A DNA stretch of 32,000 nt from Candidatus Iainarchaeum sp. (GCA_028700115.1 JAQVTI010000005.1:22166-54165), one strand, 5' to 3'; numbered from the stretch's first letter, positions 3,767-31,200 are shown. The notes: generated by a model from the sequence alone, not told the origin. Translations and numbers: made by a program.

Positions 3767-3900
3767 AAAAGCCACAATTTTTTTAAATATTATTTATATT
3801 TAATTATAAGTACCAACAAATATATAAATTGTTTTAAGATACTAAATAAATAATTTAAAAAAAATTAAAAGAATATTACTATATTTATATTAAAAAATTA

Positions 3901-3948: not shown

Positions 3949-3982
3949 AAAATTATTTGAAAAGAAATTAATATATAAAAAT

Positions 3983-4252: not shown

Positions 4253-4400
4253 ATTTTCTCAAACCCCCGTTATCTATTAAGATAACATTAATTATATTTA
4301 ATTTTATACATCTAAAGCTTTTTAAACCTTTGTTAAAAATATACTAAATTTCATATTAAAAACCTTATTTATAAGGGTTTAAAGACCAATTATAAAATAT

Positions 4401-9911: not shown

Positions 9912-9998
9912 AATAAATCTACCTTAAATATATATTAGTAGATTTATTTATAAATATAATTAATTCTTTTAAAAAAATAAAAATATAGTAAAAAAAAA

Positions 9999-10798: not shown

Positions 10799-13700
10799 TT
10801 ATTCCCCAGACATCCCCCCACCTGTTTGATTATATGAACAATCTTCTACTTGTTCTAGACTGTTTCTAATAACATTTAATTCTTCTTCACTAAAATCAAC
10901 TAAATCATTATATCTAATTGAAGTATTAAAAACTGAATTTGAAATACAAATTTCATCAGAATTTCCAATAGATTGAATCAATCCTTCTAATGTAAAGTCT
11001 TCTAAACCAAAATTTACTTTAGAGTTTAATATAAATTCTCTAGATCCTTCTTCTAGATTATCTAGACTATAAAAATATGTATTTGTATCATTTCCTAAAG
11101 AATCTAAAGATAAATTATATTGATTAATTTGAGAAGATGCAGGAACATACATTATGGTTTTTGCAGAAACATTTTCTAAATCTTCTAAACTATAATTTGA
11201 AAAGTCAATAGAATGGAATTGATAAGTCCCACTAGTTGCACTAATTGCAATATCTTTAATCTTCATATCATTATTTTCTTCTAAAATCCATTCTAAAAAG
11301 TTAGTGTTTTCTAAAACTCTAATTAAATTATTACTTTCATTTTCTTTTAAAACATAATTCAAATTATTTTCTAAATTACATTTAGAATCAACATAAACAG
11401 GAACAGGAATTGAAGGCATATAATCTAAGTCTATATATATTTGATCTTGACTATAAGTTTCATTTAAATTTAAAATATTTCCTTCAGATTTTAAAATTGT
11501 TTCAAAATAACTTGATTCAATTCCATTTTCTCTATTATAAATATTTAAAACTACAGGATTATGATTATATGTTTCTACAGGAATAAGAGATATAGAAAAG
11601 TCTTTTGTAACTGGGATATATTCTAAATTATCTGAATTAATATAATTAATTTCAGAACCATAACCTTCTCTAGTATTATCTCCGTTTGGATTAACACTAC
11701 TATCATAAATTCCAATCATTCCATCAATTGGTAGATGGTAATAAACATTATCCTTATATGAAGGAACATCTTGTATTTTTTCTAAATCAATAATAAATGT
11801 TTCTTCAAAATCACCAGTAACTTTAACTTTATACAAACCTACTTCTATAGAATTTTTATTTATTGCAAACTTTCCTTGTTCAATTGCTTCTTTTGAAAAG
11901 AAAGCTTTATTTGTAAATGAATTTGGAAGATATATATTTTCATAATTAACAATATCTTTTAATAAATCTAAAGAAGCTCCATCTCTTAAAAGATAAATAT
12001 AAAACTCAGATCCTGAAGATAAACTTTCATCAAATGTTTTTGAAAGAATATTATAAACTGCTTGAACAGAATCACAATAATATAAAGAAGAATCATCATA
12101 TTCAGAAACATCAGATGTACATAAATTACTCCAAGATAAATTACTACTAGAAAGATCACTCCAGTTATAAATTACTTTTGGTTTATATTCTTCTCCTGAA
12201 TTACAGCCTGTAAGATCATCATCTAAACAATTACCAATAACAAATAAATTTCCATTTTTAGTATAACTTCCAGAACCAATACAAAAATTACCAGTAATTC
12301 CTGTTTCTAGATCAAAAGGTTCTTGTTGTATATTATAATAAACATTAATAGAACTATTCTTTTCTAAACTATACATAGAATTTTCTACAAATGTAAATTT
12401 ATTAGTAAAATCTAAGCTTTCATTATAAATTCCATAACTAGAAATTTCTTCAAAATTCCCAGAAATTATAAGTTCAATAGCATCAGAAGATTCTAAATTA
12501 ATAGATATAAATTCTAATATTAAATCATTATCTGAATTTATTTCAGAATAAAGCACATCATCAAAATCAAAATTATAACTTTGTGTATTATTTACAAATC
12601 CATAATATCTAGATGTAGAACAATCATTTAAAGAATTACAAATAATATCTCTAGTAATTCCTTGTTGATTAATTTCAATTGCATCATCTTTGTTTAAAAT
12701 AAAAATATTAATTTCTTTTGAAATTGTAATTATTTCTCCAGAAACATTCAAATCAAAATCTAAATTTAAAACACCATTTGTTGTTTGATTATCTAAAGTT
12801 TGAATTGGTAAGACAAAACTTAAATCTAGAATAGAACTTCCAACCAAACTATTTAAACTATTATTTAATAAATCTAAATCAATTGAAGCATCTGAACTTA
12901 CATTAATTCCTTCTAAAATAATATCTTGAGAAGAATTTTCTAAATTAAAAGTATATTCTAAATCTAAACTATCATAAACTAAACTAATTAACTCTACATT
13001 TTCACTATTATCTTCAGAGTCAATAAAATAACCTTGTTTTCCTATATTACTATTTAAAAAATTTATTTTTCCAAAATAATTTAAATTAGTAAATGATTGT
13101 AAATCTAAATCTAAAAGAACACTTGAACTATTATGACTTAAAATGATGTTATGTCTATATACAGAATCAAGATATTGACTTTGTGTAACATTATCTAAAT
13201 CTAAATAAACTGGAGCATTTACTCTCAAAGACGAAGAAAGCTCTTTATTTTCATAAGCTTCAAGTTCTAAATTTATTTGTTCAGCATCAAAATTATTTGA
13301 AAAACTATTAAAAATTATTGAATTTATGTTTGCCATAACTTCAGAATATTTATTAATAAAATAATCTTTAGGAGAATCAATTGAATAAATATATTCATCT
13401 TCAACCTCAATTACTTCTGCATTAAACTCTAATAAATCAGAATCAATTATGATTCCAGAAGATATATCTTTTGTAACTTCAATTTCATTATTTTCTATTC
13501 CATAACTTGAATCAAAAACAAAAACAAAAGTTAAAGTTCCATTTGTTAAATCAGATAAAGATAGATTTAAATCAATATCTTCAAGTAAACCTAAACTATT
13601 TGTAGTTCCAATTACAGGATAGGTTTCATTTCCAATTTTGTAATATATTTCAACTTCAGAAACTGGTTCTGAAAAATTATCATAAACACTAAATGAAGCA

Positions 13701-16700
13701 ATATTTTCTCCAACATAAAAATTATTACTACCATTTGCATCTTCTGTAGTAATATCAATTATCATGTCTGCAGAATCAGTGTATGCTCTAATTGGTAAGT
13801 TAATATCTACTAAATCTAAAACATTTGTCTTAACATATGAATTATCTAAAAAGTCCAAAAACCCATTTGCTCTAATTAAAGATTCATTTGTAAAATAATA
13901 ACTAAAATATGCAGAAATATCTGAAATAGTATATTCTAAATCATTTACTATAACTTCATTTTCACTACCAATTGAAATATCTTCTTTTTGATTAAAAGAA
14001 TATTTCAAAAATTCTAAATTATCAGATGTATATTCAGAATTATAATATATATCTTCTAAAACACTTTGGTCTTTTAGATATACAAAATCTAAAACATAAT
14101 TATAATTATTATCAATAAATAAATTATAAAAATCTCCATTTTTATAAATTGGAAATCCTGTTTCTGTTTCTAAAGAAACATTATAAATATAACTATCAGA
14201 ATCAAAAGGTATGTACTCATTATAAAATGGGGAATAAAAATAACCTTCAGGAACAATTGTCCAATTCTCATAATTTTCTAAAATAGGATCAAAGTCAAAA
14301 TCATTTCCTTTATCTAAAAGTGCTTTATATGAAAAAGTATAGTCATCAATATCTGTAATAACATCACTAAACAAAATATCAACAGAAAACTCTAACTCAT
14401 CTACATCTAAAAATGAAAAGTCAATAATTGCAAACTTAGAAAATTCATTTTGTGAAGTATAAGCTAAGTCTGGTTCATAATGCTCTAAAAAATAATCACT
14501 ATTCCAATCTTCTAATTCACCAGAATAAGCATACCCATATGTAAAATCTAAATCATAAGTTGAACTTAAATCAGAAATATAAATAAAATCATTATCTATT
14601 AATTGAGAATTTCCAGTCTTAATCATAACAGAAGAATCGTGATCTTGAGAATAACAAGATAGATATCTAAACTTAAGTTTATATGTATCATCTAATGTAA
14701 AATTATCAAAATCTATTGCATCAATTTCAACTTGACCAGATTCATCAAACAAACCAACAAACTGCAAAGATATATCTTCACATGAACCAAGAGGTGTTAA
14801 ATTAATTGATTTGTAAATAGTTTGTCCAATATACAATGTAATATAGTCTGTTTGATAAGAAGAATAACCTTCTGATTTAATCTTTGCATAAACAACATTA
14901 TCTTCTCCATAGAAAATATAATTTGTATTTGAATCATCTATTTGTTCAGTCACATAGTTTGTAACTAAAGTATGTGATGAGTTATAAAAATTTATATCAT
15001 AATCATTAACATTAACTTCTAAGTTTAAAACACTAGGACTATTACCCATAGTTATAAAAAACTCTAAAAATTCATTTGCATCTAATGTTTTAACAACAGA
15101 TTCTCCAGAAAGTTCTTCAAATGAATTAATTGCATAAGCATAATAGTCTTTATTTGCTCTTTGATTATAAAAATTAACATCCCCATCATTATTTGTAATT
15201 TCAGGTTCTGCATTAACTAAAATATATTCATCTTCAAACTCTCTAAATAAATATACTTTTGAATTACTTAAAGAATATCCTTGTTCATTCTTTACAGAAA
15301 CTCCAATATCTCCAGAATTAAGTTCAGAAGAATATCCTAAATATAAATCAACATTTTGATCAATTCCAGAAACATTATATGGATCAGGAGAAATATACCC
15401 TTCATCTTCAGTATCTGAAACAATTATTCTATAATCATATAAATCTACAATATCAAAATGTGCACTTGATGAATCAGAAACACTAATTCCAGAGTCCTCA
15501 TAAGAAACATTTTCATCTTTTGGTTTATAATATAAAGAAATATCTCCAAATACTTCTTGAGAAGTATTATTTACATCCCATAAATTTACATTTAAATAAC
15601 CTATATTTCCAATAACACATTCTCCATTTGGAAGATGTGAAATATATAGTTGCAAATAAACATTATCACAATCAATTTCTCCATTTACACAAAACATAGA
15701 ATATTTATCTAATGAACAATCTATGTTTGCAAGATCTTGAGCAGTAAACAAAACAAAATCCACACTTGTGCTTTGATTTAGTAAAACATTAAAAGGTCCT
15801 TTTTTAGGTGTAAACAAATAACCTTGTTTATCCACAGAAACTAAATAATCTCCAGGAGAAACATCAAATGAATAACTACCATAAATATCAGAATTACCTT
15901 TTTGTAAAACCATTAAAGATTCATCCACTGGAGTTGATGATATATCTTTATTATAAATTTTAATAACAGCATCACTTATCTTAATATTATCTAAATTTGT
16001 AACATTAACATTAATCTTACCAGTATCATTATTAATTCTTGTTAAAACAACTTTATTATTCTCAGGAACTAATTTATTATTAATAGATTTATAATTTGAA
16101 GAAGTCACACTAACTCTTAAATCTCCACAACCAGAAACTTGTTTTACTTGTAAATATCCTGAAGATATAATTTTAGATTTAGGAATTGGAGTTTTTGATG
16201 AATTTGAACAATAAAATGAAACATTTAAAGTATCTGTAATTACAACATCATTATTTTCAACAAAAGAAATATTTCTTATTTTTTCTTCAGACTGAGAAGA
16301 TAAAAGCATTAATTCAGTATCAATATCTAGAACAACTTGTTCTCTAATTTCTTTTTTATTAAGTTCTAAATCAACCTCTTTTGTATAATAATATTCTTTT
16401 GAAACAATAAGTTTAGCAATTCCTTTTGCCTTAAACTCACTAAACATAGTTTCTCCAAAAACATCTGTTTGAGAAACACTTATGTTTTCATCATTAATCT
16501 GTAAAACTACACTTGCTCCATTTAACATAGCGCCTGTAGTATCACTTACTTCAACTGTTAAAACATAACTTTTTGAAAAGCTAAACACACCAAATATTAA
16601 TAAAAATATAAAAACTAAAATAAGTAAAAAGACAATAAATGAAGGAATAACTTTATCTATTTTGTCTGTAACATTATTTAATCTAATATTCTTTTTTTCT

Positions 16701-17266: not shown

Positions 17267-17288
17267 AATAAATCACTATTATTAAATA

Positions 17289-19775
17289 TCACCAAGTACT
17301 AAACACAGGAGTAAAAGGCATTCTTATATTAATTAGATTAGAAGCACCTTGTTTTAAAAAATCAAATTCAATAAAATATTGTTGATTATATGCAAAAGGA
17401 TATTCTCCATCTACAAGTAATCTATTTGGATTCCACCAATCAAAATTATATCTAAATTCATTATAATTTAAATCATATTCATAAAGTCCATACAAAGATT
17501 CTTCTTTAGGCACAGAATATGTAAACACTTTGTCATAAGTATAAACAGAATAATTATTTTCTAATCTAGGATTAAATAATTTATAATTACTATTTCCATC
17601 TATATCTGCATAATAAACTTTCAAATTACTAATAGTTCCAATATCTTGACTATAGATTTTAAATTGTTTACTAGTTCTAAAATTTGAAGAAGAATTATCT
17701 ATTAGATATTCTGTAGCAGGTGGACAAAATATTTCACTTCCATCAAAATTATTAAAATTACTATTAAATATACTTGATAATTCATTATAATTTGCAAAAT
17801 TAAAATCTACACTTGTAAAATTATAATCTAATTCTCCAGGTATTTTTACAAAACACCCACTCATATAAATATTTCTAGAATCTAAATTGTTTTCAATATA
17901 ATAATTATCATAATCTAAAAATATTTTTTTAGGAATATAACTATTTGATTTTATATTATTTATATAAACATCCCCGGTATGCCCAGGAAAATTTTCATCA
18001 GGTATTAAATTTTCTATAAACAAACCATTATCTCCTGCAAGACCATAATTAAGATTTATTTTAAATTGCTCAGAAATATTTTCTAAATAATTAATAAATA
18101 AATCAATTGTGTTTCCACCATCTCCACCATTTCCTGCTTCATCATCATTATTAAATCCATTAAAACTATTATCTATATCTTGTATCTTATCTCCACCATC
18201 TCCTGCTTTTCCAGGATATGTGCTAATTTCAAAAATACCTCTATTTGAAATTAAATTAAAATACAAACCATACTCTTGTAAAGAAAAAGATAATTCATTA
18301 AAATAACCATTTGAAGGCAACCCCACATTCCCAGAAAGCCCACCATCCCCTGCTTTTTTAAAATTTAAATGTGACCATTTCTTAGCTTTATCCTTACCTG
18401 TGTTTCCACCTCTACCCCCATCTCCAGAGTATAAATCAAGATAAAAATAAGCATCAGATGCATTAAAAATATTATTTATAAAAATATCAGAAATTCCACC
18501 ATTACCTCCATTTCCACCTTCTCCAAATAAATTATCTTTTCTATGTTTGTTTCTAGTAGCATATTGGTTTCTACCATTTCCACCATCCCCACCATCCCCT
18601 GCAAACAAATCTACATTTAATGTGCCGTAATTTTCAATAGTACTACTTGATAAATATGAAAAACCACCAAGTCCACCATTTCCCCCATCAAAACCTAAAT
18701 CACATTTTGACCAAGTTGAACCAATACTACTTCTACCCATTTCATCTACATTACATCCAACTGCAGCAGTATTAAAAGACATTCCACTTGCACCATTTCC
18801 TGCCTTTAAATTTAAATTTAAATTACCATAATTAAAAATATCTTTAATATCTAAATTTACATCCCCACCATTAGAAGTAATATTAGAATATGTATCATAC
18901 AAATAATCAATACTAATTTTATCCTTAACAAATTTTGTATCTCCTGTTCCATCTTCACAGCTATAAGCAATATCTACAAATCCAGAATTTCCTTCTCTTT
19001 GTAAAAGTTTATCTCCTTCTGTATCTTTTGCAATCATATTTAAATCTAAACTTGAACCATCCATTACTTTTAAACTAATAATATCTAAATATAAATTATA
19101 TGACTCATCTGATAAACCTTTAATATAATTTTTTCCTTCAGTTGTACAAAAATTTCTTTTTGGAAAATCATCAACCATCTTAATATATGAATTTGTAAAT
19201 GTATCTTCTAAATAATTTCCTTCATTATCTAAAACTCCACCAAATTCTAAATTTGCATCTATATTAAAATAAGTATTTAAAAATCCAATATCTGAAATAA
19301 TCCCTGATGGGTAAATTCCAGTTTGAGCAAACTCTCTAACTTTAGAATTATCTGAATTATTAAAAATAAATGTATTTACAGAAAGCTCAATAAAGCTGTT
19401 ATTATTAAAAACAACTTTATTAATTCCATTTGTTATAAAATTAACTTCATTATATTCTTTATAAGATTTAAATTTCAAACCATCTTCATGATTATAATTT
19501 ACAATTACAATATTGTCATTACATTTTTCTGCATTTAATTTTAATCCATAAATTTCTTTATTAAAATACATATCAAAAATACAAGTAGTACTAGTACAAT
19601 CTTGAAGACTAGTATTTGAAACATTTAAATAAGTTGTTTGAGTTAAAGTATTTTCATAAAAATCATCATAATAAGTATATTCTGCACTAACTTTACAAGC
19701 AGAAACATTATAACTTAAAAGAATTATTATTGAAAACAAAACTACTAAAAAAAACTTATTTAATTTCATAAACAT
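17289..19775 (-). CDS. Secreted (possibly lipid-anchored) 828-aa protein with Gly-rich (A/S)GDGGxGGN repeats, possible beta-solenoid
   Basis: The N-terminal signal is MFMKLNKFFLVVLFSIIILLSYNVSAC; the V-S-A-C is weakly lipobox-like. The central region holds nine Gly-rich motifs. The gene starts 13 nt after the upstream stop. The stop is TGA. Confidence 0.9.
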   Translation of the reverse strand: MFMKLNKFFLVVLFSIIILLSYNVSACKVSAEYTYYDDFYENTLTQTTYLNVSNTSLQDCTSTTCIFDMYFNKEIYGLKLNAEKCNDNIVIVNYNHEDGLKFKSYKEYNEVNFITNGINKVVFNNNSFIELSVNTFIFNNSDNSKVREFAQTGIYPSGIISDIGFLNTYFNIDANLEFGGVLDNEGNYLEDTFTNSYIKMVDDFPKRNFCTTEGKNYIKGLSDESYNLYLDIISLKVMDGSSLDLNMIAKDTEGDKLLQREGNSGFVDIAYSCEDGTGDTKFVKDKISIDYLYDTYSNITSNGGDVNLDIKDIFNYGNLNLNLKAGNGASGMSFNTAAVGCNVDEMGRSSIGSTWSKCDLGFDGGNGGLGGFSYLSSSTIENYGTLNVDLFAGDGGDGGNGRNQYATRNKHRKDNLFGEGGNGGNGGISDIFINNIFNASDAYFYLDLYSGDGGRGGNTGKDKAKKWSHLNFKKAGDGGLSGNVGLPSNGYFNELSFSLQEYGLYFNLISNRGIFEISTYPGKAGDGGDKIQDIDNSFNGFNNDDEAGNGGDGGNTIDLFINYLENISEQFKINLNYGLAGDNGLFIENLIPDENFPGHTGDVYINNIKSNSYIPKKIFLDYDNYYIENNLDSRNIYMSGCFVKIPGELDYNFTSVDFNFANYNELSSIFNSNFNNFDGSEIFCPPATEYLIDNSSSNFRTSKQFKIYSQDIGTISNLKVYYADIDGNSNYKLFNPRLENNYSVYTYDKVFTYSVPKEESLYGLYEYDLNYNEFRYNFDWWNPNRLLVDGEYPFAYNQQYFIEFDFLKQGASNLINIRMPFTPVFSTW
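18021..18803 (-). repeat. Protein-level Gly-rich repeat region (residues ~325-585 of the 828-aa protein)
   Basis: Nine motifs occur, each after a short alternating hydrophobic strand. They are LNLKAGNGASG, LGFDGGNGGLGG, VDLFAGDGGDGGNG, LFGEGGNGGNGG, LDLYSGDGGRGGNTG, NFKKAGDGGLSGNVG, YPGKAGDGGDK, DEAGNGGDGGNT and NYGLAGDNG. On the plus strand they appear as ccaccatc/ccaccatt strings. Confidence 0.8.
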
Positions 19776-19788
19776 CTAAATTAATTAA

Positions 19789-20766
19789 TTAATTATACAA
19801 TCTAAACCCAAATCCTAAAGGTATATTATAAACATTTTGATCCATATCTTCTAATTTAAAGCTTGAAGAATATCCAAATAAATTATTATAAGAACCATTT
19901 GAAACTTTATAAAGATCAGAAAAATTAATTGGATTCATATAAATTACAAATTGATTATTACTAGAATTTATTCTTTTAAATAAATAAGAATAATAATTTG
20001 AAGTATAATCATTATATATCTTATAATCATAAACATCTAAAACTTTTAAAGGATTATAAAATGAATCATAAAAATTTCCAAAAACAACAGGAGATTGTCT
20101 TAAAATATAACTACTATTTCCAACAGGGGGATTATTATGATTTGGAACATAACAATCTTCATAACAATTTAAAGAAGTTTCTACAGGTGTTGATTCAGCA
20201 TCACAAGTTCCATTTCCACAGGTATAAAAAATATAATTTGGAATTTTACACATCACAGAAGCTTCATTTAAACAAGAATTGTCTAATGGACAATTTCTAT
20301 AAACATAATAATTTATACAATTTATATTACTATTATTGTTATTAGAACAATCTGCAGAACAAGTCTCATTTTCTCCAAACTCATCTTGACAAGATTCATC
20401 CCCACAATAAAATTCACAATCTAAACAATTTAAATCACAAGAAGTTTCACAATTCTCAAAACAACCTGTCTGTTCTAAGCAAGTTTCTTTTGCAGAATCA
20501 CAAGTATCTATACAAATTTGATCTTCTCTACAATCGAAAACACATTTATCATATGCATCAAAATTAGTAATATCTAAAAAACAATTTTGAAAATCTTCAT
20601 TTTCTAAACAATCATTTTCACAAGACTCATTACAAAAATCTATACAATCTTCTCTATAATTATTATTTGTATAATCACTACAATCAGCTAAAACAAAAGG
20701 CATAAATACAGATATAAAAACAAAAACCAAAACAATTTTTCTTAAATCCATATATTTTTCACACAT
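19789..20766 (-). CDS. Small secreted Cys-rich protein (325 aa)
   Basis: The signal peptide is (MCEKY)MDLRKIVLVFVFISVFMPFVLA; a second ATG at 20749-20751 is an equally plausible start. By my count about 28 Cys fall between residues 29 and 205, spaced 2-10 residues apart. This region includes two CG[DN]x[ST]C..C..DC units. The C-terminal ~120 residues are Cys-free and N/Y/S-rich. The stop is TAA. Confidence 0.9.
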   Translation of the reverse strand: MCEKYMDLRKIVLVFVFISVFMPFVLADCSDYTNNNYREDCIDFCNESCENDCLENEDFQNCFLDITNFDAYDKCVFDCREDQICIDTCDSAKETCLEQTGCFENCETSCDLNCLDCEFYCGDESCQDEFGENETCSADCSNNNNSNINCINYYVYRNCPLDNSCLNEASVMCKIPNYIFYTCGNGTCDAESTPVETSLNCYEDCYVPNHNNPPVGNSSYILRQSPVVFGNFYDSFYNPLKVLDVYDYKIYNDYTSNYYSYLFKRINSSNNQFVIYMNPINFSDLYKVSNGSYNNLFGYSSSFKLEDMDQNVYNIPLGFGFRLYN

Positions 20767-20800
20767 CCTCTATAATATATTTAATAAAAATATATTTAAA

Positions 20801-23800
20801 TCAACTACATTGTAATGAATCAGGATAATTTTGTGTAAACACATTATCTTGACCATAAACTTCTGATGGATTCCACCAAAATTCTGATTTCAAACCATCT
20901 TCTGAATTTGTAACACAAACTTTATTTTCTAAAATATAAGAAAATAATTGTTTTAAAGATTCAATTTCTATAACACCTTCAGGAAGATCATACACATTAA
21001 ATGTAACATCTGCTGAATTTCCTGATTTATCTTTAATTTCAAAAATTCTATTCAACGGTGTATAAACAATTGTTCTTAAATAAATCTTACCAATCTTACT
21101 TGGAGTTTGTGTCCAACTAATTTTGTAAGCATTATTTATTCCATCTTCAGGAAGTGACATATCATCAAATGTATTATTAAATGTAGAATAAATATAATCT
21201 CCAGAGAAATCACATCCATCTCCAACTCCACTCCATCTAAATAAGTTAGAGTTTCCATAAACTACATCTCCTAAAACACTATCAGTTACATCTAAAAGCT
21301 TATAAAATATTGTAAACGTTTCAAGTCTATTAATACCAACAGACATTAAAACAGGAGTTGCATTACTTGGAGAAAATACTAATTGTGTTTGATCTGAATC
21401 ATATTCAATATTTAATAAATTACCTCTTGAGTTTACATTTGAATTTATTTTAAAAAAATCATTTTCTTTTAAAACATTCAAAACCCCAAATGCATTTGAA
21501 GAAGTATCATTTGATGTTAAGATTGGTTCTTCATTTTCTTGAGAAATTAAAATTTCATCTCCAAAATATGAAAGTCCATATCCTTGTCTATTATAACCAT
21601 TTTCTGTATATCCTAAAAATCCATCAAATGGAAGTCTATAAAACACACTATTATTTTCACTTGAAACAGGAACATAATCAAATGTAACAACTGAGTTTAA
21701 ATCAACTTGACTATCTTGTTCAAAATTCCAAAACTCATTATCAAAGTCTAAATCAATTCTCACTCTATATTTTCCAGGAGTATTAATTGAAACTTCATCT
21801 TGATATGAATGCTTTAGAGTAAACTCTAAATTATCTCTATAAACATTAGATAAGATACCATTTGTATAATCTGAGACTACACTTGCTCCTAAAGAATAAG
21901 GCCCACAAGAAAGTCCATCTTCAAAGCTTGCTTGTCCACAATAAGCAAGATCAAAATCATCTTTTAAAAATTGATTATAATTATCTGTAATTAAATATGC
22001 TTCAAATGAAATTAAACTTTTCAAATAGTCAATATCTTCTTGAGTTAATCCAAATCCACCATTTGTCATAACTTGTTCAGGATACATATCTGCATTAAAC
22101 CAATAATCAATAAAATCTATATTATTAATTACTTTTGTAGTTGAAGGAACTAAACAACTTTGACTTGAACTAGCTGAATCATAAATAAACAAATCAACTA
22201 TTGAGTTAAAGTTATTATTAATTGGGTCAACTGATTCTCCAGAATAATTTATTTCTAAAGACATATCTTCTTGTTCAAATAGATTTGAATTATCATAAAC
22301 CATTGTAACAATTAAAGTATCATCTGCATCAATTTGTAAATCATAAATTCCATTTGAAGAAACTTCAATTTCTTGAGGAACTGATGAAGAATAACTATAA
22401 ACATAAACATGATCTGGAAGATTAGATCCAAAACTAAAATCTAAACTTCCTTGTTTAGTTTCAAGTGTTCTATTTTTAATATATGTTTTTATATTAAAAT
22501 TATTTTCATTATCAAAAGCAAAAATTCCTCTTTTGATTCCAACTGAGTTATAATTTATTTCATTTTCTATAATACTAGGCTCAGCTGAATAACCATAAGA
22601 CCCATCAAGTGCACTTGCTAAGATTTGCTCTTCACTTAAAGGACATGAGATTCCATCTTGGCTTTCTAAAAAGTCTTTAATTAATTTTAATCTATTTATA
22701 ATCTCAATTGAAAGTTGTGCACCATCACAATATGTCTCAGAACATCTATTAATTTCTGTGTCTTGCCATGACCAATCTAAACTAACATTAGGAACAATTC
22801 CTTCTCCAGTATACCCTTGTTTGTCAGTATCAGTATAACAACTTGTAAGTTCTAAATCTACATTTGGTTGTTCATTTACATTAAGTTTATGAAACTCAAA
22901 TCTAAACTTACCTATCTTTGAAGAACCATCAAATGCAGGATCAACTATATCAACAGTATCATTATATGTAGGATAAATATTATATTCTTTGAAAATGTTT
23001 TGTGTTGATGAATTATTAAATGTATCTAAGAAACTACTTGTTAAAACAAACTCAATAGGTTTGATTCCTGATTGTTCAGGCCAAACTGTTTGATTTTCTT
23101 TACAAGTTGCAATTGAGATATATTCTAAATCAAGTTTTTGTCTAAACACAGCAGAACCTGTACAAGTTGTCTTAAAATCATATCTACTATTATTATTTGT
23201 AATTTCTAAAGGACTACAATTTGTTGATGTAGCTAAAATTTTACCATAAAGTCCATTATATAAATCATCTTCATAAAGTTCAAAATTACTATTTTTTAAA
23301 CTACAAGCATCTAAACTATTTATTATATCTTCATCTTTTGCTAAATTTCCAAAAGCCTCTACTTTTTGTGATAAATAATTAAAATGTCTAGCTCCTGTAA
23401 TATCAAAGACATCTAAATACATAGGCTCAACATCTTGAGTCTCAATCACTTGTATTTTTGTTGATTCATCTTCATTTAAAATATTTCCAACATCTAATGA
23501 ATAATCCCAAGCATAATGTTTGCTATCTGAAGCAATTGTATTATAAATTAACTCAGCTAAAGGAAAAATACCACTAAGATAATAACCAACACCACCTAAA
23601 TTATTATGTAACTTTGCAAAAAACTCATCATAACCTGAGCTTCCACCAATTGGAAAACCATTTTCTAGATTTCCATTATCACTAAATTTTGCTTTTGTAT
23701 AAATTGTACCATCATTATTTTCAAAATCATCTGACATAAATTTAGAAAATCCATCATGACCTTCTACTTTTTGCTCTGCATAATCCCATGGTGTTTTTAC

Positions 23801-26800
23801 AATATTTTTATTATACAATTTAGCATTATAAACTCTATCATCATCTAAGACTTCTAAGAAAGGATTCTCCATCCATAATTGATCTTTAACATTTACTCTT
23901 AAATTTTTTGTAACTCTAGAAAGCACTCTATCATTTTGATTCATAGCTTCAATCAAAACATTAATAATATACGCTCCAGGAACTTCTGGTTTATAAATAT
24001 CTACAATCTTTTCTTGGTCTCCAACAGAAAACACAATCTCATTATTTTGATTTCCTGAAAGATTACCATACTCTAAATCTTGACAAGAAAAATGGTTTGC
24101 TTTATCATCACAAAATGTAAGTCTAAACTTACCATTATTAGAACATTTATTTCTAATAGTAACTTCTTGAGAAGAACCAATAATTGTCTCACTATCAATT
24201 ACAAACATACCGTTTTGATTAATTGTTTTACCATCTTGTTCAAACTCAAAACATTCATTTATATTTACAATTGAAAACTCAGAATCTAAAAATTGTTCAG
24301 TATCTCCATTATTAACATATTCTAAACCATCTTCTGTTTCTACTTGTCCATTAATATAAAGATCTGTTTTTATATCTCCAAACTTTAAAACTCCAGAATT
24401 AAATGTAATTGTAACCATATAATCTGTTTCTGGTTCAATTGTATCATATGCTTTTTTATAAATTCCTTCTGAAAGTCTAGTTGTTTGTCCATTCAAACTT
24501 ACATCATAATATCCAGTCTTGTCTTCTGTATTTACAATCTTAAATTTTAAATTTCTTAAACTTAAAAATGTATCTGGATTATCATAAGACTTACAATTAT
24601 TCTGAACAATAAAACTTATAGTTTGAGCTTTAGAACCATCAATTACTCCTTCCCAAACTTTTTCATGTCCAGATGTAGTTAAACAATTATCTTGTAAAAC
24701 TCCATTTCCTACAGAAATTATAACTTCAATAGGCACAGAAAAAATATACTCACTACTTTCAATTGAAGTAGTTCCTGTTAAAACACCTGAAAGATATTTA
24801 GTTTCAAATAAACTAACAGCATCTAAAGAAGGTGAAATCTTTACTTCTAAAGTTCTACTTGAGTTTGCAGGAATTACAAAACCTTCAGAGATTTGTGTAT
24901 TTAAAAACTCTAAAGTCTTTTCAACAGCAAGATAATTTGATTCTTCAAAATAAATTCCTTCTGTTTCAAACTCATTTAAAGTCATATCAAACTCAGTTAA
25001 GTTCTCAATTGTAATTTCTTTAATAGTCCCATTTACTTCATTTTTATTAATATTAATTTCTAAAGGAGCATCATCTGTAATTTCTACAGAACCATCTAAA
25101 ATATTTAAAACATCTTGATTTGCAGAAACTTCAATTCTTTCTGCAAAATAAGTTGCTTTTGTAGCTTCAATTATTAGTTTTTCTCCAATCTCTAAAGGTG
25201 CAAGAGAAACTAAAACTTCTCCTAAGTCATTTGTTTTTTTATCTAAAACAACAGGATATTCATATCCATTTACTTTATAATAAATATTTACAGTAACATC
25301 TGAAAGGAAAGTGTTTTCTTCTTGATCTTTAATTGTGATTAAAAGATCAAATGGTTTATTAGGAACAATATTTACAGGAGAATAATTTACTTGCATATTG
25401 TGTAAATTTCCAACTAAAAGATTAAGTCCTAATGAATAAATTTCTTGTTGATCATTAATAATTTGATGATACAGTCTAGATTGTCCAAGATATAATGGAG
25501 AAAGTGTATTTTTGAAAAATGTTTCAGAATATGAAGGTATACTTTCAGTTAAAATTTCGTCTTCATTAAAAGGTATCTTAAAACTTTCTTCTCCAGCAGT
25601 TAAATAACCAGTATCATTAAACGCACCTGAAATTTCATAATTTTTAATATTTACAACTTCAAGTGGGTTATTATATAAATCAGAATTAAAAATTAATAAT
25701 CTAGATTCATCAAAATCATCAGAAGATGAATTTGTTAAATAATATTCTAATAAATAATCAGAATTAATTTGCATAGGCACATCTAGATTAGAACTTATAT
25801 CAGATCTAATATCTTTTAAAACATCAACATATTGTCCTTTAAAACAAAAGCTAGAACTACAAAGTTCTTCTGCATCTATGTAATATTGATAATATTCATA
25901 TAATGAATTATTTGTATAATCTTCAAAATTATCAGAATATGAATTAAAATAAACAGGAACAACTTCATTAATTGCAGCATCATGTGTTCTAATAGGCACA
26001 GTTAATTCATAAACTCCAGGAGAAATATTATCCCATAAGATATCAATTAGTTTTGCATGCATATCTGAAGATATAATTTCTGTAAAAGGATATTCTTTAA
26101 AATATTTAGTTACACCTAATGTGTTTGTAATTGGATTTATAAAAACAATATCATCATCAGAAGAATTTTTACTTCCAATCTTAAAAACAAATCCCATTTT
26201 TTCTGAAGCTATTGGATTTGTTAATCTATATTTAAAATAAAATATTTTATTATTTTCTAAAGCATCAACTTCTTGACTAGTAGAATCATAAACTCCTAAA
26301 TAATCAACTAAAGGTGTGCTTCCAGTATATTCACTAGATAAAATAATATCTTTTGTAATAACTGTATCATTTTCCACTCTAATTACTTCTGTAAAATATG
26401 GCATATAACCTTCTTTTGAAACCTTAACATAAACTCTTTTATCTGCTTTTAAAGTCTTTGAATAAGTTCCGTTTTGTGTAGAATAATCAGTACCTAATAA
26501 ATCACCTGTATCTAAATAAAAATCAAGTGTAGCATCTGAAACAGAATCTCCTAGACTATCAAAAATATTTAATCTTAAAGTTCCTTCTCCAATAAACACA
26601 GAAACTAAAGCATTACTATCTTCTGGAGGAGTATGTGTAAACTCTTCAGAAACTCCTTCTAGATAAAGTTGTTTTAGTTTAATAAAATAATCTCCTTCTG
26701 GAATATTTTCAAAACTAACTTCTCCATTTGAATCTGTTGTTAAAAAATCAAATCTAGAATCAATATAACCAGTTTGAGAATCATAGATTAAAACTTTAGA

Positions 26801-28144
26801 AAAAGCAACAGGAATTTCTTCTTCATCTAAAGCCTTTACATTTATATTAGAAACATTACTTACAGTAACTTCTTCTAATTTAATAATATAATTATTAGAA
26901 TCATTAACTTCCACAATTTCAGGGATGTAATTTAATGCAGAACCTCTAATTGAATAATCTTTTCCTTCTTCAATTAAAAAAGTAAAATCAGTTGGATCTG
27001 TTTTAACCTGAACAGATTCATTTCCATCTAAAATTAATTTTATTTGAGGTTCATAAACTAAATCATCTATAATTTCTAAAGTTTCTTTATCTTTTAAAGT
27101 AACTTCAATTAATCTAGTTGAAACTACTTGGTTAGTATCAGGATCAACTAAACTATTTGGATCTTGTGAATCCATTAAATATAAATTTGCTTTTGTTAAA
27201 TTATCTTTTTCAATTACAATGTCTTTTGAAGAAGAAAGATATCTATTTACAGAATCACTAGTAACTATTCTATAACTTCCGGTAGGTAAGTTATTAAACT
27301 CAGAAACCCCCCAAACTGTGTCTTTAACTTTAAATGGATTTAATAAATCGTCTGAAGAATAAACTGAAACTGTAATTCCATCAATAAATTGAGATTGACT
27401 TCCATTTTTTATAGTAGTAACTTTTAAAGATCCAGTATCCACATACAAATAAATATAATCTAATTTTACAACAGATTGATTTTCAGGAATAATAATTCCT
27501 TCAGTTACATAATTTTCTCCTTTAACACTAGCAATAATAGAACCACAATTAGAAGGAACATCAAAAGTATATTTTCCATTATCTACAACTAAGTTTGTAG
27601 GAGATATTTTATCTCCATTTTCACATCTTAAAGTAACATTTAATGCTTCTAAGATTAATGAAGTTGTAGAAGAGTCTACAAAAGACAATGTTTTATTAAA
27701 TGAAGTAGGAACATCTAAAGTTTCTAAAATAACTTTAAACTCAGAAAGATTAGGATCTACATCTTTTTCAAAAAGTTTATATCCCTTACTTTTAATTACA
27801 ACCTGATACATTTTTTTTGTGTCTAATGAAATAATTTTCTTTCCAGATGAATCAGAAACATAAGTTATCTCTTCACCTGTATTTATGTTTTTTATATCAA
27901 AAGAAAAGTTAGTTAAAAGCAAACCAGTATCATCTGCTAGTTTAAATGTAACATCATTATAAACCGGAACAGGATTTAAGATATATGGTTTAAATATAAA
28001 AAATAATATTACTAAAATTATTAAAATAAATATCCAAAAAGAAACTAATTTATTTTTTTTATCTAACTTAGAAGTTATTTTTTTTATAGGTATTCTTTGA
28101 TCTACTTTATCTAAAAAATCTTGCCATTTATCTCCAAAAGACAT
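20801..28144 (-). CDS. Giant (2447 aa) type-II-anchored surface protein: short N-terminus, one TM, Ig-like domain array, shared C-terminal module
   Basis: This is a 7.3-kb open ORF. A GGTGAT SD (28150-28155) lies 5 nt upstream of the ATG. The TM spans about residues 34-51 (VSFWIFILIILVILFFIF). At least six CarboxypepD_reg/PEGA-like units occupy residues ~60-600, e.g. NINVKALDEEEIPVAFSKVLIYDSQTGYIDSRFDFLTTDSNGEVSFENIPEGDYFIKL. The stop is TGA. Confidence 0.95.
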   Translation of the reverse strand: MSFGDKWQDFLDKVDQRIPIKKITSKLDKKNKLVSFWIFILIILVILFFIFKPYILNPVPVYNDVTFKLADDTGLLLTNFSFDIKNINTGEEITYVSDSSGKKIISLDTKKMYQVVIKSKGYKLFEKDVDPNLSEFKVILETLDVPTSFNKTLSFVDSSTTSLILEALNVTLRCENGDKISPTNLVVDNGKYTFDVPSNCGSIIASVKGENYVTEGIIIPENQSVVKLDYIYLYVDTGSLKVTTIKNGSQSQFIDGITVSVYSSDDLLNPFKVKDTVWGVSEFNNLPTGSYRIVTSDSVNRYLSSSKDIVIEKDNLTKANLYLMDSQDPNSLVDPDTNQVVSTRLIEVTLKDKETLEIIDDLVYEPQIKLILDGNESVQVKTDPTDFTFLIEEGKDYSIRGSALNYIPEIVEVNDSNNYIIKLEEVTVSNVSNINVKALDEEEIPVAFSKVLIYDSQTGYIDSRFDFLTTDSNGEVSFENIPEGDYFIKLKQLYLEGVSEEFTHTPPEDSNALVSVFIGEGTLRLNIFDSLGDSVSDATLDFYLDTGDLLGTDYSTQNGTYSKTLKADKRVYVKVSKEGYMPYFTEVIRVENDTVITKDIILSSEYTGSTPLVDYLGVYDSTSQEVDALENNKIFYFKYRLTNPIASEKMGFVFKIGSKNSSDDDIVFINPITNTLGVTKYFKEYPFTEIISSDMHAKLIDILWDNISPGVYELTVPIRTHDAAINEVVPVYFNSYSDNFEDYTNNSLYEYYQYYIDAEELCSSSFCFKGQYVDVLKDIRSDISSNLDVPMQINSDYLLEYYLTNSSSDDFDESRLLIFNSDLYNNPLEVVNIKNYEISGAFNDTGYLTAGEESFKIPFNEDEILTESIPSYSETFFKNTLSPLYLGQSRLYHQIINDQQEIYSLGLNLLVGNLHNMQVNYSPVNIVPNKPFDLLITIKDQEENTFLSDVTVNIYYKVNGYEYPVVLDKKTNDLGEVLVSLAPLEIGEKLIIEATKATYFAERIEVSANQDVLNILDGSVEITDDAPLEININKNEVNGTIKEITIENLTEFDMTLNEFETEGIYFEESNYLAVEKTLEFLNTQISEGFVIPANSSRTLEVKISPSLDAVSLFETKYLSGVLTGTTSIESSEYIFSVPIEVIISVGNGVLQDNCLTTSGHEKVWEGVIDGSKAQTISFIVQNNCKSYDNPDTFLSLRNLKFKIVNTEDKTGYYDVSLNGQTTRLSEGIYKKAYDTIEPETDYMVTITFNSGVLKFGDIKTDLYINGQVETEDGLEYVNNGDTEQFLDSEFSIVNINECFEFEQDGKTINQNGMFVIDSETIIGSSQEVTIRNKCSNNGKFRLTFCDDKANHFSCQDLEYGNLSGNQNNEIVFSVGDQEKIVDIYKPEVPGAYIINVLIEAMNQNDRVLSRVTKNLRVNVKDQLWMENPFLEVLDDDRVYNAKLYNKNIVKTPWDYAEQKVEGHDGFSKFMSDDFENNDGTIYTKAKFSDNGNLENGFPIGGSSGYDEFFAKLHNNLGGVGYYLSGIFPLAELIYNTIASDSKHYAWDYSLDVGNILNEDESTKIQVIETQDVEPMYLDVFDITGARHFNYLSQKVEAFGNLAKDEDIINSLDACSLKNSNFELYEDDLYNGLYGKILATSTNCSPLEITNNNSRYDFKTTCTGSAVFRQKLDLEYISIATCKENQTVWPEQSGIKPIEFVLTSSFLDTFNNSSTQNIFKEYNIYPTYNDTVDIVDPAFDGSSKIGKFRFEFHKLNVNEQPNVDLELTSCYTDTDKQGYTGEGIVPNVSLDWSWQDTEINRCSETYCDGAQLSIEIINRLKLIKDFLESQDGISCPLSEEQILASALDGSYGYSAEPSIIENEINYNSVGIKRGIFAFDNENNFNIKTYIKNRTLETKQGSLDFSFGSNLPDHVYVYSYSSSVPQEIEVSSNGIYDLQIDADDTLIVTMVYDNSNLFEQEDMSLEINYSGESVDPINNNFNSIVDLFIYDSASSSQSCLVPSTTKVINNIDFIDYWFNADMYPEQVMTNGGFGLTQEDIDYLKSLISFEAYLITDNYNQFLKDDFDLAYCGQASFEDGLSCGPYSLGASVVSDYTNGILSNVYRDNLEFTLKHSYQDEVSINTPGKYRVRIDLDFDNEFWNFEQDSQVDLNSVVTFDYVPVSSENNSVFYRLPFDGFLGYTENGYNRQGYGLSYFGDEILISQENEEPILTSNDTSSNAFGVLNVLKENDFFKINSNVNSRGNLLNIEYDSDQTQLVFSPSNATPVLMSVGINRLETFTIFYKLLDVTDSVLGDVVYGNSNLFRWSGVGDGCDFSGDYIYSTFNNTFDDMSLPEDGINNAYKISWTQTPSKIGKIYLRTIVYTPLNRIFEIKDKSGNSADVTFNVYDLPEGVIEIESLKQLFSYILENKVCVTNSEDGLKSEFWWNPSEVYGQDNVFTQNYPDSLQCS
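20804..22912 (-). other. Shared C-terminal module, copy in the 2447-aa protein (residues ~1745-2447)
   Basis: The module carries FRFEFHKLNVNEQPNVDLELTSC, PNVSLDWSW, YCDGAQLSIEIINRLKLIKDF, FEAYLITDNYNQFLKDDFDLAY, PGKYRVRIDLDFDN, SVFYRLPFDGFLGY..RQGYG, RGNLLNIEYDS, VFSPSNATPVLMSV, WSGVGDGCDFSG, IYLRTIVYTPL and NKVCVTNS..LQCS. Confidence 0.8.
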
Positions 28145-28191
28145 TTAAAATCACCAAAATATATTTTAATATATATGTAGATATTTTAGTT

Positions 28192-28199
28192 TTTAAATA
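28192..28199 (-). promoter_or_regulatory. TATA-box-like element upstream of the 2447-aa gene
   Basis: The quasi-symmetric string tttaaata/tatttaaa lies about 48-55 nt upstream of the 28144 ATG. It sits between the terminator-like structure of the 1025-aa gene and the GGTGAT SD. The same 10-mer, ttttaaatat, recurs at 3781-3790 upstream of hisS. Support is weak because the background is so AT-rich. Confidence 0.25.
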
Positions 28200-28221
28200 T
28201 ATGTTTTTTAGAAATAATAAA

Positions 28222-28274
28222 TAAAAAAATAAAAGAAAAAGAAAAAAGATTTTATTTTTTAAAAAATAAAATCT
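28222..28274 (-). terminator. Palindrome plus U-tract, candidate terminator of the 1025-aa gene
   Basis: A perfect 28-bp palindrome (28247-28260 agattttatttttt / 28261-28274 aaaaaataaaatct) overlaps the TAG stop. On the minus strand it is followed by TTTTTCTTTTTCTTTTATTTTTTT. The trailing 16-mer TTTTTCTTTTTCTTTT is identical to the one after the HU hairpin. Confidence 0.45.
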
Positions 28275-31200
28275 AATCTATAATACATCCACCGTTTTGT
28301 TTAATCCAAGAATTCATATTTTCAGTATCTAAACTTCCAAAATATTCTTCATAAACAAACTTAGGATTATAATAAACATTCATACTTGTAGATGAATAGT
28401 TTACACATGCTTTTTTATCAGCAATCATATCATAGATATCTTTAATTGTTTGAATATCATTACTATAGATATTTTCTAAATCAACAATTGTTCCATCTCC
28501 TGAGTTTGTATAAAACATTAAATCATCAGAATATGAATCTGCAACTAATTGACTTGTACCATTTCCTAAAGGTGAGTTACTTGGTGTATAAAGAATAGTC
28601 TTTAAGAAAACACTACCATTCTTTCTAATAATCTCATCTTCTGGCCATTCAACACCATATGTAAAGTTTTGAGATGGTGTATATGGAGCAAGTTCAGATT
28701 GAGTAGCTAAAATATCTGCTCTATCAATAAATATTTCTTGAACTGAAATTCCAGTAAAATCTTTACATTCTCCAATTCCTGTCCATTTTGTTAAATAACT
28801 TCCAGGACTTGCAGCTTCTCCTCCTTGGTCTTCAGGAGCTCCAACACTTAGTTTATAAAAAGCATAAGCATCATTGTTTGTGTTTGTAACTTTCATAACA
28901 ACAGGTGTTGCTCTAGAAGGAGCAAATCTTACTTCAGGAGCAGAATGTGAAGAGTTTGTTTGAACAGAAAGGATTTGTCCTCTTGTTTGGTTATTATTTA
29001 ATTTTGAAAAATCCCCTGGTCTATTTCCAATCTCAGTAAAACTAACTGTGTTTACTGTGTTTGAAGCAGTAAAAGGTTCTGATCTAATAACAGTTGCCTG
29101 ACCATCATTATAAACCTCTAAAACATCTCCAATGTAATCAATTCCATAACCTTGTCTTGCATTTTCAGAAAGCACACCAACTAAACCATCAAATGGCATA
29201 TAATAGATAGGTGCATCTTTTTCAGGAGGCATTTCCTTAGATAAAACAATTTCCACATCTCCTACAATGTTTCCAAAATCATCAAAAATTCTCCATTGAT
29301 CATCAAATGTAACATCAACTAAAACTTCATATCTTCCAGGACCAGGTAAAACTAATTTTCCAGATTCTGAATCAAATGAGCTAGTGTATGCAAATTTATC
29401 ATGATCTAATAAAAGTTTATATAAACCTTCTTCTGTAGTATCATCGTAATAATACTGTGGATATGCCATAAAGGTCATTCTATAATATTCATCAAAATCT
29501 TCTAAAAAATCATTTGAATATCCATCAAGCATTAAAAGTGATCTAAAGTTAACTAATTTATCATAATCAAAATTATTTAATTCTCTAGCAAAATCTTTTA
29601 TATTTTCAGAAGTATGTTCTAGAGAACATTCAACTCCTTCTGTTGAAAATATATTTTCTAAGAAATTATCTAAAGATCTAGGTTCATTATATTCTGAGTT
29701 TAAATCAGAAGTAAAATTACTTAAAGATGCAGTTACAGTTAACTTTTCAGGATCTGCAAAGTAACCTGCATTTAAAGAAACTTCTCCACTTATATTTTCT
29801 AAAGAAAGTTCTTCTCTTGAAAGTTCAACTTCAACAGAATCTAAAATTACACTATTTGAATTTTCTAAACTTAAAGTCAAAGTAGCACTAGAATCACTTG
29901 AAGGATTAATTCCAGAAAAATCATAATAAGATTCTAAAGTATATTCTACATTTACTAAACTTAATGAATCATATTCTGAGTTTAGAGAAGTTATTCCAAC
30001 ATTATCTGTTTGAACTTCTAAATCTTGAGTTACACCTGGCATAGGACAAGTAAACTCAGAACTGTTTTGTAAAACATATTCTTCAAGTTGATGTAATTTA
30101 TTTAAAATTTCAATATTAAATTGAGTAGCATCACAATACATTCCAGTGTCTGTAATAGAATCATTTCCTGATGATCCACTTGTAATTGATTTAGAATCAA
30201 CATCACACCATGTATCTTTTGTAAGTTCTTGACCATTTATTGCAATTGTATTACCAGTATCAAAGTCCCAATCAAATGAAACTCTTGGTAAAGATTCTTC
30301 TCCTGTTGTTCCAAGAATAATACCACCATCTACACAATCTAGTTCTTCTAATTCTAAAGTTGAATCTTCATCAACTGTCCAAGAATTAAAGACTAAATGG
30401 AATGCTTGTTTTTCTTCTTTAACTTCAGCCATATCTTGTAGTTCTTTTGCTAAAGTTTTTCCATCTAAAATTTTATCAAGTCTTAAAGCACTTGTAACTG
30501 AATAAAATGGCATAAAATATAAATTTGCCCATCCTAAATCATCTTTTATCATATCAAATTTTAAATTAATATAAATTTCTTCTTCATCAAATAAAAGTTT
30601 AGGATATTTTGTAACTAAAAATCTATACTCATAATCATTTCCAACAGTTTTGTTTGGATCTTCAAAAAGAATTCCTCTTTTTTGAGCAGAAGTTACATTA
30701 TTATTTAAATCATATGTAGTATATTCTTCTGTTGTTTCTTCTAATCTAAATGTAGGCGAATTAGATCTATCTAATGAAGGTAAATCAACAGTTTGAATAA
30801 ACTCAGTATCTAAAATATTTTTATCAGTAATTGTCATTGTCTCATAAGGCAAAGTATCTGTTTCATATGTATTATAATTTGGATCATTTGGAGACATTAT
30901 TCTTTGTAAATAAAAATCTGCAGCATAATTTGAATAATCAGGATAATCTATATAATCAGATTTATCATTTGAAATATTAACTAAATCTTTTGTTAAAACA
31001 AATTCAAATTTAGTATCTTTTACATTTTGATATGTTTTAAATCCAGAAACTGCTCCAGCTAAAACACCATGTATAATAGGAGAAGGACCTACTATTTTTT
31101 CAACTAAATCTATTGCAACATTAGTTAAATTTCCTAAAAGATAACCAGAATTATTTCCTCCTGTTAGAAAATTTCCTAAATTTCCTGCTAAAGCATTATT

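Follow-up and report, generated by a model that had tools for sequence, protein, structure and literature searches.

A previously undescribed head domain family on giant surface proteins of Iainarchaeota

Background

DPANN archaea are thought to depend on cell contact, and the molecules that make this contact are largely unknown and differ between phyla. A 32,000-nt stretch of DNA from Candidatus Iainarchaeum sp. (GCA_028700115.1 JAQVTI010000005.1:22166-54165; hereafter "the window"), an organism that is a DPANN archaeon of the Iainarchaeota (Diapherotrites), encodes three proteins of 1025, 2447 and 2155 amino acids (aa) in one block of surface-protein genes. An original prediction, made from the window's sequence, proposed that these three proteins share a C-terminal module that matches no named domain. 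The locus thus raises the question of whether the three C-termini are truly related and, if so, what kind of domain they represent, how widely it occurs and what it might do at the cell surface. We find that the shared region is an ancient extracellular domain assembly of ~500-710 aa, and that it defines a head domain family on giant archaeal surface proteins that is ancient, phylum-restricted and previously undescribed.

Results and discussion

Homology of the three C-terminal modules

Homology is confirmed for the three C-termini. All nine sets of motifs said to recur in one order do so, spanning residues 355-1025 of the 1025-aa, 1785-2447 of the 2447-aa and 1696-2144 of the 2155-aa protein, and the module boundaries first proposed proved accurate within ~20 codons. 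BLASTP run on the segments so delimited matched the 1025- and 2447-aa proteins at E 3e-30 (26% identity over 447 columns), with a second high-scoring segment pair at E 1e-8 across the N-terminal sub-domain described below, the 1025- and 2155-aa proteins at E 4e-7 and the 2447- and 2155-aa proteins at E 8e-5. Global identity is 23-28%, in line with the quarter to a third that had been estimated by eye. Smith-Waterman scores all exceeded the top score among 200 composition-matched shuffles (z = 51.5 for 1025/2447, 5.7 for 1025/2155 and 8.0 for 2447/2155), and comparison of the module with the neighbouring 828-, 325- and 1836-aa proteins gave z = −0.8 to 2.5, with values below 2 for the 828- and 325-aa proteins, and thus no resemblance. 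Chance matches and shared composition, a concern in a proteome rich in Asn and encoded by AT-rich DNA, are ruled out by these z-scores and neighbour-protein controls. A hidden Markov model (HMM) of the family recovered the three modules with domain E-values of 8.6e-191 (1025), 3.7e-157 (2447) and 3.5e-62 (2155). Comparison of the full-length proteins extended the homology of the two giants to their N-terminal and mid regions; the 1025-aa protein shared the C-terminal part only.

Size and taxonomic range of the family

A first, word-indexed search with the 1025-aa head as query returned 26 unannotated orthologues of ~960-1090 aa from archaeal metagenome-assembled genomes (MAGs). Word-indexed searches with the 2447-aa head or a mixed alignment added almost nothing, and it was an exhaustive HMMER search over 1.84 billion representative proteins, with a profile of the 26 orthologues and the other two window heads, that revealed the family: 677 clusters (50% identity) at E<=1e-3, of which 415 at E<=1e-30. 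The 1025-aa MDD3975972.1, from a "Candidatus ainarchaeum sp." MAG, belongs to the cluster whose representative, P0001, shares 93% identity with the window head, and it is probably the very protein encoded in the window. Among the matches listed, nearly all are confined to the extreme C-terminus of proteins of 2200-3250 aa. According to the family HMM, the median number of residues following the module is 0, with more than 40 in one protein only, and each protein carries a single copy of the head, none having two.

A taxonomic scan of one genome per GTDB species yielded 75 loci. Their labels below domain level are Iainarchaeum, Diapherotrites or "ainarchaeum" with three exceptions, which are possibly binning or labelling errors; many of the 75 are labelled merely "archaeon". 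Among their sources are Ca. Forterrea multitransposorum and archaeon GW2011_AR10, both with complete genomes, and Ca. Iainarchaeum andersonii, represented by a single-cell genome. The GC content of the loci, 26-56%, indicates that the family spans deep diversity. Among taxonomically labelled genomes, then, the head family is almost confined to Iainarchaeota (Diapherotrites). A viral origin or a role as a receptor-binding protein was considered and rejected, as no relatives were found among IMG/VR viral contigs. No close relatives of the 2155-aa head turned up when JGI metagenome contigs were searched.

Anchors, stalks and topology

We examined topology by a hydropathy scan (Kyte-Doolittle, 19-mers) rather than a dedicated predictor. 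The 2447-aa protein has a sole hydrophobic segment, with KITSKLDKKNK in front of it, and the 2155-aa protein has a single strong one in its N-terminal part, preceded by DKIDKVIPSF (the positions of both are given in Table 1). Because this single N-terminal segment follows basic residues and no C-terminal one is present, the modules of the giants are predicted to lie outside the cell and far from the membrane. The earlier proposal of N-terminal anchors and membrane-distal modules thus holds for both window giants, and likewise for their homologues, 92 of 95 of which have a hydrophobic segment within the first 300 residues. Many giants carry the cytoplasmic motif YY.LED.YY ... PID..PSF just before the anchor, and the PxD..PSF motif is common to 34 of the 95 giant homologues. 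The usual carrier of the head is accordingly a protein of 2200-3250 aa with an N-terminal cytoplasmic motif, one transmembrane helix, a long β-sandwich stalk and the head.

The stalks are built from recognisable β-sandwich families. In the 2447-aa protein the stalk matches Pfam CarboxypepD_reg at E 4e-11, with sub-threshold matches to the SpaA, SdrD_B and NOMO β-sandwiches, and in the 2155-aa protein two stretches match CarboxypepD_reg (E 1.5e-9). Homologue stalks give matches to Big_1, fn3, SpaA, SdrD_B and macroglobulin (MG)-like domains, several of them below the curated cut-off. The proteins carry N-X-S/T sequons.

The 1025-aa protein differs in having neither anchor nor stalk. Its only hydrophobic 19-mer, at residues 8-26 (Kyte-Doolittle 2.42) and followed by ...ANIFAADG, makes the N-terminus signal-peptide-like, as had been suggested, and the signal peptide is presumably cleaved. 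The pre-head region aligns with that of a giant homologue (P0034), so that the protein looks like a truncated giant. In the window clade, one paralogue has lost its anchor and stalk to become a protein of ~1000 aa with a short pre-head region and the head.

The two window giants also differ on the cytoplasmic side. Residues 1-209 of the 2155-aa protein (16640-17266, minus strand) form an unusual Lys/Glu-rich cytoplasmic extension of ~200 aa, against only ~30 residues in the 2447-aa paralogue.

Anatomy of the head

A first AlphaFold2 model of the 1025-aa head, based on 27 sequences, had a predicted local distance difference test (pLDDT) value of 73.5 and fell below 50 at the signature motif. 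The second, from a 69-sequence alignment that included heads of giant proteins, reached pLDDT 90.0 and a predicted template modelling (pTM) score of 0.83. Residues below are numbered within the module; adding 314 gives the numbering of the 1025-aa protein.

Three parts can be distinguished. The N-terminal sub-domain shows the highest conservation in the family (mean column 0.53) and contains C25, W47, C68, the motif YCDATQF (Y91, C92, D93, Q96), a 25-residue helix at 94-118 and C121-P122. We considered and rejected a thioester reading of YCDATQF: the C-x3-Q spacing is wrong, there is no thioester-domain (TED) fold and the number of conserved cysteines is even.

The second part is an insert with eight strands in the model and the lowest conservation (0.31), predicted to be an immunoglobulin (Ig)-like β-sandwich with structural neighbours among Ig-like domains. 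Foldseek aligned ~127 columns, at probability 1.0, to Ig-like sandwiches of glycoside hydrolase family 2 (GH2) and to Brr2 Sec63 sandwiches, and from the aligned length and strand pattern we infer that these matches belong to the insert. In 102 of 114 members the insert measures 100-168 aa; the other 12 have just 3-38 aa there and keep both flanking cysteines nonetheless, suggesting that a C121-C261 disulfide closes the base of a budded-out domain. Both of these cysteines and the ~130-aa insert are missing from the 2155-aa head, which is why this copy is shorter.

From C261 to the C-terminus runs a core that is mixed α/β and β-rich. Its conserved residues are D295, D300, D304, G358, Y360, Y402, P405, G408, G411, R418, G420, Y421, G422, N471, R476, G477, P497, P502, W542, C548, D550, D565, C668, N681 and C708. 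R418 and Y421 are invariant in 122 sequences, and Y402, P405, G408, G411, G420 and G422 are at least 90% conserved. The core signature reads F.AYL.KDGYS.DF..DFD.YY ... PG.Y.V ... YY.PFDG.VG...RQGYG ... PS.ATPV ... W.G.G.C.DF.G ... TIFYTP ... CV...G....WNPK ... C. Eight cysteines are at least 90% conserved over 122 members, consistent with the disulfides that conserved Cys positions had suggested at the outset; by their number and near-invariance they would fit four disulfides and an extracellular location, with C121-C261 and C668-C708 as predicted pairs.

What the head might do

We consider it about an even chance (roughly 0.5) that the module is the distal interaction head of surface fibrils, contacting other cells or materials. 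Binding of a ligand or partner is judged the most likely activity in view of the adhesin-like architecture, the polar and aromatic nature of the conserved residues and the variability of the Ig-like insert. Under such a scheme, two or three paralogous heads would be co-expressed from a conserved, tightly packed and co-directional array together with two small membrane proteins. Carried past the cell envelope by long fibrils, they would serve the cell as its contact organ. The heads would bind a conserved partner via invariant polar or aromatic residues (R418, Y421, W542, Y360, Y402, N471, R476, D295, D300, D304, D550 and D565), and this partner might be the other heads or something on the surface of a host or neighbour cell, such as a glycan. 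The variable insert would modulate specificity. As for the short secreted paralogue, it would offer the same binding activity in soluble form or else associate with the anchored heads.

Several points weigh against an interaction head. The functional step is drawn wholly from the architecture. Conservation does not single out the head as the functional centre, since among close orthologues it is barely more conserved than the stalk (identity 0.40 vs 0.37). The head is conserved phylum-wide in a phylum that earlier authors, as quoted in PMC5905446, proposed to include free-living members, which argues against a strictly host-specific adhesin, as does the near-equal conservation of head and stalk. 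Finally, the invariant Asp, Arg, Tyr, Asn and Trp residues are equally compatible with a catalytic site.

A different explanation is that the head works outside the cell as an enzyme whose fold is unrecognised and which scavenges nutrients, for example by degrading glycans, lipids or polymers; it would be mounted on a stalk in the giants and secreted in the short form. The (near-)invariant polar residues D93, Q96, D295, D300, D304, R418, Y421, N471, R476, D550, D565 and N681 would suit such an activity, as would the conservation across the phylum and the existence of a secreted stalk-less form, and Ca. Forterrea, described in PMC5905446 as having no lipid, nucleotide or vitamin synthesis, must scavenge. 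However, the head has no sequence or fold similarity to any hydrolase, lyase or transferase family, and the retention of identical residues by three divergent paralogues would be an unusual redundancy for one enzyme. A long β-sandwich stalk, too, is more typical of an adhesin than of an enzyme, although stalk-mounted enzymes exist. We regard an enzymatic role as unlikely.

Searches for known families and folds

The proposal that the module corresponds to no named domain withstood every search. Pfam gave no head match in the window proteins or in 26 diverse family members, NCBIfam and PHROGs gave none either, and two PDB sequence-profile searches of the head (the second up to E<=10) returned nothing. 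Foldseek, run twice against PDB and also against BFVD, returned generic Ig-like matches to the insert and no neighbour for the rest of the head, the pLDDT-90 model included, and the whole-model TM-score was <=0.14. There was no lectin or adhesin fold at the distal end by Foldseek and no recognised adhesive or ligand-binding domain in Pfam, NCBIfam or PHROGs. The archaeosortase/PGF-CTERM signal is absent as well, the C-termini (...GGCIID, ...LQCS and ...GGGMSGE) having no hydrophobic segment.

These searches also bear on the idea that the S-layer or main cell-wall lattice of Iainarchaeota consists of these proteins, with the module as the lattice-forming domain. Predicted location at the cell surface and phylum-wide conservation agree with a lattice role, as do the abundance of β-sandwiches, found in many archaeal S-layer proteins, and the N-glycosylation sequons. 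Yet no S-layer Pfam domain was found in the window proteins or the 26 members and no S-layer structure among the 50 Foldseek PDB matches listed, and the usual size of S-layer proteins, 400-1500 aa, is far from sets of two or three paralogous 2400-aa stalked proteins. In addition, DPANN S-layer proteins have been predicted to be MSTP-like in a preprint (10.1101/2024.05.28.596244) whose Table S1 holds a 1039-aa Iainarchaeota entry, and this predicted S-layer protein (A0A2G9N319) is probably distinct from the short-form head protein. MSTP-like S-layer proteins are likewise extracellular, archaeal and β-rich, but the Iainarchaeota head sits on a stalk of ~1700 aa and does not make up the whole protein. 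A lattice function seems very improbable.

Tandem arrays and paralogue types

Run against all six-frame open reading frames (ORFs) of the window and 76 loci, the family HMM found head-bearing genes in tandem, two or three per locus, these counts being limited by the 10-kb flanks. Arrays with three heads occur in the window clade (short, giant, giant) and in 18 other loci. By average-linkage clustering, the 138 heads of the 77 loci group by position in the array and not by genome. The first gene, which is divergent, the second and the third each make up a type, and the short form of the window clade, its 2447-type and the lone 2155-type fall into groups of their own. Head identity is 18-30% between types and 28-51% within them. 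Clustering by position rather than genome implies that the duplications pre-date much of the phylum's radiation, which bears out the view of the three window copies as old paralogues and not products of a recent duplication.

Gene order is retained across genomes. The complete genome of Ca. Forterrea (CP045477.1; locus L004) has orthologues of the 1025-aa gene (43% identity) and the 2447-aa gene (38%) in the same order. Two small multi-pass membrane proteins of 123 and 116 aa belong to the same setting: they have BLASTP homologues in 32 and 31 of the 76 related loci, respectively, in the loci compared (L022, L041 and L034 among them) their genes come directly after the last giant gene, in the window they are 1 nt apart, and neither protein has a Pfam family. 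The pair may help to anchor or export the giants.

Such fixed sets of paralogues might instead mean that the heads are obligate assembly modules, which bind each other and so hold the fibrils together under a distal cap or canopy of hetero-oligomeric make-up. Self-association would then be primary, though it need not exclude external binding, with the short secreted paralogue as a stalk-less subunit of the cap. The ancient types kept in fixed gene order across the phylum, the tight and co-directional packing of their genes and the three heads per array in the window clade and 18 other loci all speak for this possibility, and an anchor-less soluble head must be held at the surface by something. 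Against it, tandem copies of the same type (in L029, L046, L054, L068 and L070) look more like functional redundancy, and the monomer model is compact and confident by itself (pTM as above). We hold a distal cap to be a tentative possibility, behind the interaction head.

On a bolder reading, the three heads, the giant stalks with their cytoplasmic motif and the two small membrane proteins might together form a phylum-specific cell-contact machine whose hetero-oligomeric tip, of a fold not seen before, would serve attachment to a partner cell and the uptake of lipids, nucleotides and other building blocks. This is doubtful at present; if true, the machine would be the DPANN counterpart of a host-interaction organelle.

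Two further giants (~2300 and ~1700 aa) lie directly upstream of the short head protein in two related loci (L001, positions 1-9967, and L004, upstream of 9179). Neither gives a match to the head HMM, so the large surface-protein region mixes head-bearing and head-less giants.

Comparison with known systems

Within the same phylum, Probst & Banfield 2018 (PMC5905446) reported five membrane-anchored proteins of >1,800 aa from one 42-kb region of Ca. Forterrea and proposed a role in cell-cell interaction. Locus L004 of that genome carries members of the family described here and may lie inside the 42-kb region. The sections of that paper drawn on here note the size and membrane anchoring of the proteins and do not describe the shared head, its phylum-wide distribution, the paralogue types or the small membrane proteins.

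Bacterial fibrillar adhesins and giant surface proteins with stalk and tip (for example SiiE and LapA, or Giant1-5 of Apilactobacillus kunkeei in PMC12863079) resemble the Iainarchaeota giants in their great size, repeated β-sandwich stalk, distinct non-repeat terminal domain, tandem paralogous genes and presumed role in interactions with cells or surfaces. The Iainarchaeota proteins differ in being archaeal and in being held by an N-terminal transmembrane helix instead of an LPXTG motif, type I secretion system (T1SS) retention or an outer-membrane anchor. Their head is C-terminal and contains no known adhesive domain, and their paralogues are ancient and positionally conserved, in contrast to lineage-specific expansions. 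Of the features that define fibrillar adhesin-like proteins, the giants thus have a β-sandwich stalk and an anchor at one end and lack a recognised distal adhesive domain.

A resemblance to α2-macroglobulin and other MG thioester proteins lies in weak MG3 and MG4 matches in the stalks and in the near-invariant Cys and Gln of YCDATQF. The motif is C-x3-Q and not CGEQ, however, the model has one long helix and no α/α-toroid, and there was no A2M or TED match in Foldseek or Pfam.

In a different DPANN phylum, the SPEARE giants of Candidatus Nanohaloarchaeum antarcticus, reportedly described by Hamm and colleagues in PNAS in 2019, are said to be surface-associated, with a proposed part in host interaction, and to carry protease, adhesion and restriction-endonuclease domains. 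Pfam found no such domains in the proteins studied here.

As stalk-and-tip surface proteins, the giants are therefore of a known kind, and what is new is the head, the anchoring polarity and the conserved multi-paralogue operon. In this head of ~700 aa, whose fold is unrecognised and which tips giant anchored fibrils, Iainarchaeota have a phylum-wide candidate contact molecule, now with a signature, an HMM, a confident structural model and a conserved operon context, and an earlier, vague remark on large membrane-anchored proteins becomes a defined family of 677 clusters. The family can be used for expression, structure determination and binding screens and as a lineage marker. Should the core prove to be a truly new fold, or to have a new binding or enzymatic activity, it would add to the catalogue of extracellular protein architectures.

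Features of the window and neighbouring genes

The window has a GC content of 21-28%, and all ORFs of more than 100 aa, bar one spurious ORF, are on the minus strand. In the direction of transcription, the C-terminus of a repeat protein is followed by the 1025-aa and 2447-aa genes, genes for a 325-aa Cys-rich and an 828-aa Gly-repeat protein, the 2155-aa gene, the 123-aa, 116-aa and 1836-aa genes and finally those for histidyl-tRNA synthetase (HisRS) and alanyl-tRNA synthetase (AlaRS). Intergenic gaps in the surface-protein cluster are 1-128 nt, on one strand throughout. Coordinates are collected in Table 1.

Table 1. Positions of the head modules, their parts and associated genes in the window
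Feature	Position	Strand	Basis
Head module of 1025-aa secreted protein, residues 315-1025	28273..30408 (incl. stop codon)	-	HMM, AlphaFold2, 26 orthologues
Cys-rich N-terminal sub-domain of 1025-aa head, module residues 25-122	30043..30336	-	Conservation and model
Variable, predicted Ig-like β-sandwich insert, module residues 125-255	29644..30036	-	Foldseek matches, low conservation
Conserved head core, module residues 261-711	28276..29628	-	Mostly pLDDT >90
Signature YYMPFDGLVGV...RQGYG, residues 716-736 of 1025-aa protein	29143..29205	-	Conservation across 122 sequences
Signal-peptide-like N-terminus of 1025-aa protein	31264..31350	-	Hydropathy
Head module of 2447-aa protein, residues 1746-2447	20801..22909 (incl. 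stop codon)	-	HMM, BLASTP
Stalk of 2447-aa protein	22910..27991	-	Pfam CarboxypepD_reg and sub-threshold β-sandwich matches
N-terminal membrane anchor of 2447-aa protein, residues 33-51	27992..28048	-	Kyte-Doolittle 3.31
Head module of 2155-aa protein, residues 1660-2155	10799..12289 (incl. stop codon)	-	HMM, BLASTP
Stalk of 2155-aa protein	12290..16582	-	Pfam CarboxypepD_reg; homology to 2447-aa protein
Membrane anchor of 2155-aa protein, residues 210-228	16583..16639	-	Hydropathy 3.47
Small multi-pass membrane protein, 123 aa	10351..10722	-	BLASTP across related loci
Second small multi-pass membrane protein, 116 aa	9999..10349	-	BLASTP across related loci
Two secreted accessory proteins (325 aa and 828 aa) between the giant genes	17289..20766	-	N-terminal hydrophobic segments

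The two accessory proteins between the giant genes have one N-terminal hydrophobic segment each. The 325-aa protein (19789-20766, minus strand) contains 29 cysteines, many in C-x3-C or C-x-x-C-like spacings and in an acidic context; it matched no family and had no detectable homologue at the equivalent place in L001. The 828-aa protein (17289-19775, minus strand) has ~10 Gly-rich turns (GDGG, GNGG, GGNGG), one every 25-40 residues, a pattern that suggests a β-solenoid, and is distantly homologous (E 1e-7) to the L001 protein at the equivalent position after the giant gene.

Further along the operon, the N-terminally anchored 1836-aa protein (4401-9911, minus strand) gave no match in Pfam, NCBIfam or PHROGs. 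Near residues ~1390-1440 it contains ...YFISHGGPNLF... and, later, ...PVIFAQSCLTG..., and this placing of HGG and AQSC after hydrophobic strands recalls the His/Cys dyad of peptidases of clan CD (caspase/gingipain-like). At the other end of the window, the upstream ORF (31400-32000, minus strand), which runs off the window, ends in ~9 GDNTT repeats, 3 GDDTT-like repeats and a globular domain of ~150 aa; it has no Pfam match and no head module.

The AlaRS gene (from before position 1 to 2316) contains a single in-frame TGA at 1888-1890 (minus strand; context ...act tct att TGA ttt gga gat...), beyond which the frame continues unchanged. The position appears to correspond to a conserved Arg in the catalytic core of archaeal AlaRS. 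Since TGA is the genuine stop of the 2447- and 828-aa genes, the codon in AlaRS does not reflect global recoding; more likely causes are an error that turned CGA into TGA, a variant within the population, a pseudogene or read-through confined to this site.

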